A DNA stretch of 8,611 nucleotides from a virus (Duplodnaviria; Heunggongvirae; Uroviricota; Caudoviricetes): IMG/VR virus record IMGVR_UViG_2563366981_000001, positions 1-8,611 of that record; one strand, 5' to 3'. The notes under the pieces are model-generated. The model saw nothing but the letters and a program-made list of their open reading frames with translations, did not search any database and was not told the origin of the DNA. Numbering within the stretch: the first letter of the stretch is position 1; each line of letters starts with the position of its first letter. The translations under genes and the position numbers were made by a program. Positions 6,043 through 6,991 of the stretch are shown here, in pieces.

Positions 6043-6816
6043 TCAAAAATTAGGTGAGTAACGGACCGGGGACATAGCTCCTTTTTTTCTTAATTCATCT
6101 GGTATTTTTTTTCCAAGATAAAGATTTGCTATTTCAGGTGGGGCTTCTCGACCTTCAAAACCATAGCGAGAACTTTGTGTTGCCTCAAAGTCCGGATCCT
6201 CGTCCCAGTATTTCATCGTAGGGAAATTTTCACGTGTTGATTTGAGCCATTTATCAGCAATGAAAACCCCTCGAACGATCCCCCTTACAGTAGCAAGAAT
6301 GACTTCTGCTTGGCTGGCGCGAGAGACATTAATGCGCCAGCTAAATCGAACCGCATCATAAAGCTCTGAATCCTTTGCACTTCTGTTAACGGAAATCATT
6401 AATGCTTTATGATGAAATGTTATGGTTTCGGGTTGATATGTTGCTATCAACTCTTTGACATGCGCGGCGCCGAATTCATTGCTGCCAGCACCATTCATGA
6501 TATTCGTTAACCCAGGGTAGGCATCAATAAGTGCTGCTTCAACTTCGTACGCCGTCTTTTCATCAGTCATTCCGTGTCGATGGATGACATGGATAACCTC
6601 AAGTCCTGCTAACCTTATTTCTCTAATTTGCTTTAGCTTGTTGCTCAGTAACTCGTCATCATCAGTCGCTGCCACTTCACCGCGCATATGGGCAAATACG
6701 CGGTTACCTTTGCCTTTCCCTACATAGAAGGTGCTTCCGTCCCTCGGATCAATCAATCGGTATACATACCAGCCAAGGTGTTCAATTACTCCAGAAGGAA
6801 ACTCAGTAATATCCAT
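6043..6816 (-). CDS. GIY-YIG-type nuclease-domain protein with uncharacterised C-terminal domain; candidate anti-phage / modification-dependent nuclease
   Basis: ATG at complement 6814-6816 gives 257 aa (the track's 274-aa form starts at a TTG at 6867; neither start has a strong SD). N-terminal motif set: ...[28 protein letters not shown] (GIY-like ...12 aa... YVG, then Arg +8 and His), then ...[17 protein letters not shown] (candidate catalytic Glu), then ...NIMNGAG (Asn). The C-terminal ~150 aa has no recognised motif. Convergent with pin. Confidence 0.75.
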
Positions 6817-6991
6817 TTTGCAATATCTATGAATTATTTGTGAGACGTATATTAATGAACATTGCAAGAGCTCACAAGCAGTAGTGTTGAGAAAACCATC
6901 GGGGAAATGAGGCTAAGCCTTTGAATTTACAAGTACAAAAAAGATACTTTTCCTCATAATGTGAATTAATTTTATGTTTCGTTTGATGATT

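Follow-up and report, generated by a model that had tools for sequence, protein, structure and literature searches.

What has come to lie directly after the DNA invertase gene pin, in the place that mcrA occupies in prophage e14 of Escherichia coli K-12, is the question raised by the tailed-phage DNA of IMG/VR virus record IMGVR_UViG_2563366981_000001, positions 1 to 8,611 (this whole 8,611-nucleotide (nt) stretch is the window). An original prediction, made from the letters without database searches, filled this place with an uncharacterised protein bearing a GIY-YIG-type nuclease domain, a candidate novel anti-phage or modification-dependent restriction nuclease working on its own. The gene is very probably an intact copy of PD-T4-3, also called CMoRE, a single-gene anti-phage nuclease directed against phage DNA with modified cytosine. 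The notion of a stand-alone, modification-dependent anti-phage nuclease would accordingly seem well judged, a PADLOC match to PD-T4-3 and near-identical published enzymes both pointing the same way; the notion of novelty was mistaken, since PD-T4-3 was published in 2022 (PMC9519451) and several times thereafter (PMC12366544; 10.1101/2024.12.20.629700; PMC12923530). Gene, defence phenotype, substrate, cut site and crystal structure are all in the literature.

The reading frame is undamaged. An intact protein of 257 amino acids is encoded on the minus strand at 6043-6816, with the stop codon at 6043-6045, inside a maximal open reading frame (ORF) of 274 amino acids that begins at a TTG (6043-6867 in the ORF list). 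The ATG at 6816 is the true start, and the upstream TTG is rejected, because RefSeq annotates a 774-nt gene for WP_000355484.1, because the crystallised constructs in the PDB begin MDITEF, and because the residue numbering of the published work (Y17/Y19/Y31/R80/V92/L96/Y127) fits this start only. Thus the ORF of 257-274 amino acids that had been proposed is present, but its longer version should be given up in favour of the 257-residue form as the real product. No second ORF that might serve as a partner lies in the surrounding cassette (5986-7013), whose other ORFs of at least 40 amino acids are antisense overlaps only; the absence of a partner immunity gene had been correctly noted.

Identification as PD-T4-3 is carried by PADLOC profile PDLC04031 (E=2.7e-140, 464 bits), which pairs residues 18-273 of the 274-residue ORF with profile positions 1-255 of 256, and by alignment with two crystallised enzymes: CMoRE of E. 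coli O157:H7 (PDB 9U75/9U8D; 253 of 257 residues identical, 98.4%, E=3.7e-172) and its counterpart from avian pathogenic E. coli (APEC) O1 (PDB 9U7U/9U7Z; ~87% identical, E=1.1e-150). The four substitutions relative to the O157:H7 enzyme (window residue first) are T51A, E55D, Q169K and N197H, the last two being the only differences in the sensor domain; at positions 55 and 197 the APEC O1 enzyme likewise has Glu and Asn. The acidic run that reads DDDD in O157:H7 is DDDE in APEC O1, the same as D52-E55 of the window protein, and E55 preserves the charge of the acidic loop. The residues named in the CMoRE work, which are those listed above together with D52-E55, are all conserved, and R39 is present as well. 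Because all named residues are conserved, the same mechanism can be assigned to the window protein with high confidence. The protein is identical to WP_000355484.1 of other E. coli strains and of several small records filed as plasmids, and at the nucleotide level the gene of the window is 100% identical to the one that encodes WP_000355484.1 in the E. coli strains C7 and CPE35. No sequence feature counts against the identification.

The two halves of the protein behave differently in family searches. The N-terminal GIY-YIG domain is recognised by Pfam PF22945, LEM-3_GIY-YIG (E=2.4e-14; 54 bits against a cut-off of 27), over residues 28-110 in the 257-residue numbering, and the motif set on which the original prediction was built is all there: VY19R, Y31VGKG, R39 (Y31+8), H43, a Glu in AYEVEAAL, and N105/N108 in TNIMN. 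The profile searches suggested at that time proved a weak test, the generic GIY-YIG model PF01541 remaining under its cut-off (13.7 vs 22.6 bits) and the T5orf172 model giving no match to the protein; the useful information came from PF22945 and PADLOC. The NUMOD/IENR Pfam models do not match either, no HNH family is among the Pfam matches at E<=1, and no NCBIfam model matches the protein. The GIYxY-YIG motif with three tyrosines, as defined in PMC12923530, reads W16-Y17-V18-Y19-R20 ... F30-Y31-V32-G33, and the catalytic order Tyr, Tyr, Arg, Glu, Asn of GIY-YIG nucleases is found as Y19, Y31, R39, E93 (or E91) and N105; judging by spacing against UvrC, E93 and N105 would be the catalytic Glu and Asn. 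The C-terminal half (~130 residues) has no Pfam or NCBIfam match, in keeping with the earlier remark that it resembles nothing familiar, and aligns without gaps to both crystallised proteins. Its proposed role as the sensor is probably right: 5-hydroxymethyl-dCTP (5hm-dCTP) is bound in this domain in the CMoRE structures, with a hydrogen bond to the main chain of Y127, and the domain is described as having no relatives in sequence or structure (PMC12923530).

One other reading of the same domain is a homing function: the gene would be a selfish mobile element whose GIY-YIG endonuclease cuts one particular empty allele. PHROGs assigns the protein to phrog_5356, a family of 'unknown function', and also returns a weak match (E=0.0016) to phrog_314, 'homing endonuclease'; in Pseudomonas phage OBP, Klebsiella phage N1M2 and Serratia phages, full-length homologues with 38-45% identity carry the label 'homing nuclease' or 'GIY-YIG endonuclease'. 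These phage annotations rest on the domain only, however, and the gene lies outside any intron, intein or host gene, in a prophage-end cargo slot. The C-terminal domain appears to be a modified-base sensor rather than a sequence-specific DNA-binding domain, and cleavage by CMoRE is T4-wide and modification-dependent (PMC12923530). The probability of homing is therefore negligible.

What PD-T4-3 does is known in some depth. It emerged in 2022 from a functional selection in E. coli, in a text that lists a GIY-YIG nuclease among 21 new systems (PMC9519451); the name appears there only in figures, so that the link between that paper and PD-T4-3 is made through this mention and through the citations of later papers, which name ECOR68 as the source. 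The Capnocytophaga homologue PD-T4-3Capno, a member of the same family that is 48% identical to PD-T4-3, restricts T4 and not the unmodified T4-GT7, degrades T4 DNA and not T4-GT7 DNA in vitro, and loses defence when its catalytic residues are mutated (PMC12366544). In the clinical isolate NILS69, chromosomal PD-T4-3 is one of only two active defences: deletion of the gene raises the efficiency of plating of two phages, LF73_P1 and LF73_P3, and K-12 gains protection from four Tevenvirinae phages when it carries the cloned gene (10.1101/2024.12.20.629700). Liu et al. find that the O157:H7 enzyme, expressed from its native promoter, confers ~10^5-fold protection against T2, T4 and T6 (PMC12923530). 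CMoRE binds and cleaves DNA containing 5-hydroxymethylcytosine (5hmC) or glucosyl-5hmC, but not DNA containing C or 5-methylcytosine (5mC); T4(hmC) is sensitive and T4(C) resistant; the cut site is CN11/N9G, with 2-nt 3' overhangs and a requirement for two modified cytosines, and cleavage extends across the whole T4 genome (PMC12923530). The enzyme is a tetramer, disruption of which by V92S/L96S abolishes defence; active-site mutations of the O157:H7 enzyme abolish both defence and cleavage; a 15-residue acidic insertion forms a lid on the active site, and the 4A mutant of this loop cuts unmodified DNA and is toxic; modified DNA does not activate the enzyme allosterically (PMC12923530). The experiments that the original prediction had proposed (T4 variants with glucosylated hmC, hmC and C; catalytic point mutants) have in this way already been published for near-identical alleles.

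Carried over to the window protein, these facts predict the following course of events. The protein would assemble as a tetramer, a dimer of dimers, as has been shown for the 98% and 87% identical enzymes. Its C-terminal domain would bind 5-hydroxymethyl- or glucosyl-hydroxymethyl-cytosine in duplex DNA, a dimer reading two modified cytosines ~21 bp apart, and the N-terminal GIY-YIG domains would cut between both cytosines (CN11/N9G, 2-nt 3' overhangs) with Mg2+ or Mn2+. The loop of four acidic residues over the active site would exclude unmodified host DNA, and a methylase or immunity gene would be unnecessary for that reason. Incoming T-even DNA would be degraded and the cell would survive. 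That last point separates direct defence from abortive infection, in which a nuclease set on host DNA after infection kills the cell; removal of the acidic loop does yield a toxic enzyme that cuts ordinary DNA, but cultures with the system grow normally at a multiplicity of infection above 1, with host DNA reads unchanged, and CMoRE is classed as a direct defence (PMC12923530). The same has been reported for the ECOR68 system. A suicidal toxin is very improbable.

Whether the direct-defence nuclease is made in sufficient amount is a separate matter, and it is here that the points weighing against the preferred reading are concentrated. A canonical Shine-Dalgarno sequence was not found upstream of the gene, and a simple scan for promoters and terminators returned no consensus sigma-70 or other promoter-like site on the minus strand there and no terminator around the gene, so that the position of the promoter is not established. 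An IS1 insertion and truncated tail-fibre genes mark the prophage around it as decayed, and expression in the strain is assumed. Promoter strength also varies between alleles, the APEC O1 allele being weak from its own promoter (PMC12923530). From these points one could construe the gene as an intact but silent passenger of a dead prophage, showing no phenotype in its strain through poor expression or repression, and it might be added that one phage escaped the NILS69 system at its native level and did not escape the plasmid-borne one (10.1101/2024.12.20.629700). Yet the ORF is undamaged and the identical protein is kept in many genomes; the 197 nt upstream travel with the gene; the O157:H7 locus, which has 96% identity to the stretch around the gene, defended strongly from its native promoter (PMC12923530); and the chromosomal copy of NILS69 is active (10.1101/2024.12.20.629700). 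We consider the silent passenger unlikely and infer that this allele is expressed and active in its strain. Possible poor expression of this copy, given the decay of the prophage and the failure to locate a promoter, is the sole caveat that still counts.

The genomic setting is that of e14 with its cargo exchanged. In e14 of K-12 (strain DH1) the invertible tail-fibre segment is followed by pinE, then mcrA, then the icd' att fragment. The pin gene of the window has 92% nucleotide identity to K-12 pinE and is annotated pinE in matching genomes; pin and the tail-fibre assembly genes align with e14 at 88-92%, an alignment that breaks off at 5986, one base past the pin stop codon. PD-T4-3 follows directly, on the opposite strand, in the e14 mcrA position, just as the original prediction had it. 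What moves is apparently a 1.03-kb cassette consisting of the gene and 197 nt upstream, because the prophage of strain C7 shares only window 5985-7013 (98% identity; locus L003, 6943-7971). The C7 copy is located after a tail-fibre assembly gene at an ssrA-proximal prophage end, and its homology to the window breaks at 7013, inside the anticodon-arm part of a tRNA-Ser fragment. The larger stretch 5986-7631 is 96% identical to the O157:H7 locus. Across the left edge of the cassette, at 5963-6019 on the plus strand, there is a weak partial match to the Rfam family CssrB, chromosome-encoded Shigella small RNA B (32 bits against a gathering threshold of 76, E=2.5e-4); the matched segment takes in the pin stop codon and the space that separates pin from the 3' end of PD-T4-3, and is probably no more than shared prophage sequence.

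The PD-T4-3 gene is present in 958 of 5426 complete E. coli genomes (18%) and contiguous with pin in 565 of these. This distribution bears on the possibility that the protein serves host DNA, in repair or as a structure-specific enzyme, as a nuclease of the UvrC, SLX1 or LEM-3 kind: the gene is accessory, restricted to that minority of genomes and always in prophage cargo positions, and the protein is without the C-terminal half of UvrC and without ankyrin or LEM domains. In vivo, host DNA is untouched and phage DNA is depleted (PMC12923530). A role in repair is scarcely credible. In sum, both the genomic setting and what has been published on the biochemistry speak against homing, repair and abortive infection.

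The right edge of the cassette is marked by a tRNA-Ser fragment that stands where icd' follows mcrA in e14, 176 nt upstream of the PD-T4-3 start. By BLAST it corresponds to the last 65 nt, at the 3' end, of tRNA-Ser genes annotated in thousands of E. coli genomes; compared with the O157:H7 copy it has TT->GG in the T-loop. Even at relaxed thresholds it is not reported as a gene by ARAGORN (with -ps80 it yields a spurious tRNA-Gln on the other strand). The fragment looks like the attR remnant of a prophage that integrated into tRNA-Ser. A repeat of the thrW 3' end that could serve as the attR of the thrW island was not found within 3 mismatches, nor by a repeat finder. The island begins at thrW, yet what lies to the right is an attR-like tRNA-Ser remnant and not a thrW repeat, so that two elements have apparently been joined in it.

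Two further occurrences of the family deserve mention. Strain ZJ3920 (locus L004, 7001-10939) has a divergent, APEC O1-like allele (75% nucleotide identity), again at an ssrA-proximal prophage end, with a 630-residue DUF262 protein and a pin-like recombinase fragment between it and the tail-fibre genes; that is, two candidate nucleases in one prophage-end slot. Full-length homologues (records H36-H52), at the 38-45% identity given above, occur in ~250-285-kb jumbo phages of Serratia, Pectobacterium, Pantoea, Pseudomonas and Klebsiella (examples are Serratia phage Moabite, NC_048792 6406-7161, and Pseudomonas phage OBP, NC_016571 158703-159449), where the records call them homing endonucleases, GIY-YIG endonucleases or hypothetical proteins; they might serve to attack co-infecting phages whose DNA is modified. 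It is tempting, if rather doubtful, to go further and to regard the e14-type slot after pin as a dedicated exchange point for modification-dependent nucleases, bounded by the pin stop codon and the att core and holding McrA in e14, PD-T4-3 here, and PD-T4-3 plus DUF262 in ZJ3920, and to suppose that this allele (Q169, N197) or the jumbo-phage homologues read other modifications, such as Mu momylation or arabinosyl-hmC, in phage-against-phage competition.

Table 1. Features of the window, with the cassette and the PD-T4-3 gene first
Feature	Position	Strand	Basis or remark
PD-T4-3 / CMoRE coding sequence	6043..6816	-	257 amino acids + stop; PADLOC profile, PDB identity, RefSeq
TTG in-frame extension, 17 codons, outside the protein	6817..6867	-	RefSeq and crystallised proteins start MDITEF
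Upstream non-coding part of the cassette, presumed native promoter	6817..7013	-	Travels with the gene; O157:H7 locus 96% identical
GIY-YIG nuclease core, residues ~14-110	6487..6777	-	W16-Y17-V18-Y19 ... Y31-V32-G33, R39, H43, E91/E93, N105
Predicted autoinhibitory lid loop, four acidic residues D52-D53-D54-E55	6652..6663	-	Present in the window protein
Predicted C-terminal modification-sensing domain, residues ~120-257, including Y127; limits approximate	6046..6459	-	5hm-dCTP site in CMoRE crystal structures
Whole 1.03-kb PD-T4-3 cargo cassette	5986..7013	.	Left, end of e14 homology; right, end of C7 homology
pin, serine DNA invertase, the neighbour that defines the slot	5431..5985	+	Pfam Resolvase E=1.1e-51, and HTH_7
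tRNA-Ser gene 3' fragment, 65 nt, apparent att remnant at prophage module end	6992..7056	+	96.9% identical to annotated tRNA-Ser 3' ends
proA	1-1254	+	
tRNA-Thr(CGT)	1369-1444	+	
Tyrosine integrase	1459-2622	-	
HTH_17 excisionase-like ORF	within 2499-2933	-	
IS1, complete, 768 bp	3165-3932		Both terminal inverted repeats; insA 3220-3495, insB 3414-3917
Tail-fibre assembly gene, 3' part	4109-4330	+	
Tail-fibre assembly gene, complete	4302-4904	-	
Tail-fibre C-terminal piece	4904-5404	-	
AraC-family regulator	7632-8384	+	
IS3-type transposase fragment	8426-8611	-	

In the remainder of the window (Table 1) the prophage is heavily decayed. The IS1 element replaces the middle of the prophage, and to its right only the 3' part of the plus-strand tail-fibre assembly gene is left; because of this replacement one end of the Pin-invertible segment is gone and no complete substrate for Pin is found here. 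Two small ORFs, one of 109 amino acids beside the excisionase-like gene (2849-3178, minus strand) and one of 67 amino acids between the tRNA-Ser fragment and the AraC-family gene (7188-7391, plus strand), have no Pfam match, and nothing ties either to the defence gene. The whole window is found in one piece in no complete E. coli genome of the collection (best, 85% coverage at 97% identity). Its parts are each common; the arrangement with the IS1 truncation is either uncommon or belongs to a strain that the collection does not include.

The discovery value of this locus is small, the system being already in PADLOC and, according to PMC12923530, in DefenseFinder. What can be said for the original prediction is that a reading of the raw sequence anticipated a stand-alone modification-dependent restriction nuclease, a C-terminal sensor and the mcrA slot, and did so correctly. 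The value that is left lies in fixing the start codon at the ATG at 6816, in the exact limits of the cassette (5986-7013) and the point at the pin stop codon where mcrA and PD-T4-3 are swapped, and in a tidy case of cargo exchange, one prophage position being filled by either of two type IV enzymes that are unrelated.

Among known systems the closest are, needless to say, the CMoRE enzymes of O157:H7 and APEC O1 and the original PD-T4-3 of ECOR68, which are of the same family and have the same type I architecture, a 257-residue GIY-YIG nuclease plus sensor; the GIYxY-YIG motif, the acidic lid loop, the interface residues and Y127 of CMoRE are the same in the window protein. In O157:H7 the gene also has the same chromosomal place, in the thrW island, after pinE and before an AraC-family gene; the prophage of the window is more truncated than that of O157:H7, by IS1, and a functional difference is not indicated. 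PD-T4-3Capno also cuts Mu DNA, which contains carbamoylmethyl-adenine, at high enzyme levels, a trait of the Capnocytophaga homologue.

McrA of e14 shares with PD-T4-3 its place, immediately behind pinE at that end of an e14-type prophage which is nearer to att, and the type of activity: both are single-protein type IV enzymes directed against modified cytosine, and neither has a methylase partner. The two have no sequence relationship, and McrA is transcribed in the direction of pin, whereas PD-T4-3 is on the opposite strand. McrA has an HNH nuclease fold and acts on 5mC and 5hmC but not on glucosylated hmC; PD-T4-3 differs from it in having a GIY-YIG fold and in acting on 5hmC and glucosyl-5hmC but not on 5mC.

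In substrate the nearest parallel is instead the PvuRts1I/AbaSI family, whose members depend on 5hmC or glucosyl-5hmC and thus act on the same class of DNA as CMoRE. They cut at ~CN11-13/N9-10G and leave 2-nt 3' overhangs, which is strikingly like the CN11/N9G of CMoRE. PvuRts1I combines a PD-(D/E)XK-type nuclease with an SRA-like sensor, whereas CMoRE combines a GIY-YIG nuclease with a sensor fold that has no known relatives, so that the likeness looks like convergence, not homology. PvuRts1I is named in the CMoRE paper as a comparable tool for mapping 5hmC (PMC12923530). In catalytic fold, finally, the relatives are the type II enzymes Eco29kI and Hpy188I and the N-terminal domain of UvrC, the last being the nearest structural neighbour of the CMoRE nuclease domain (PMC12923530): all have the same set of Tyr, Arg, Glu and Asn, but they are without the third Tyr, the 15-residue acidic insertion and the modification sensor, and Eco29kI and Hpy188I cut specific unmodified sites and need a methylase.
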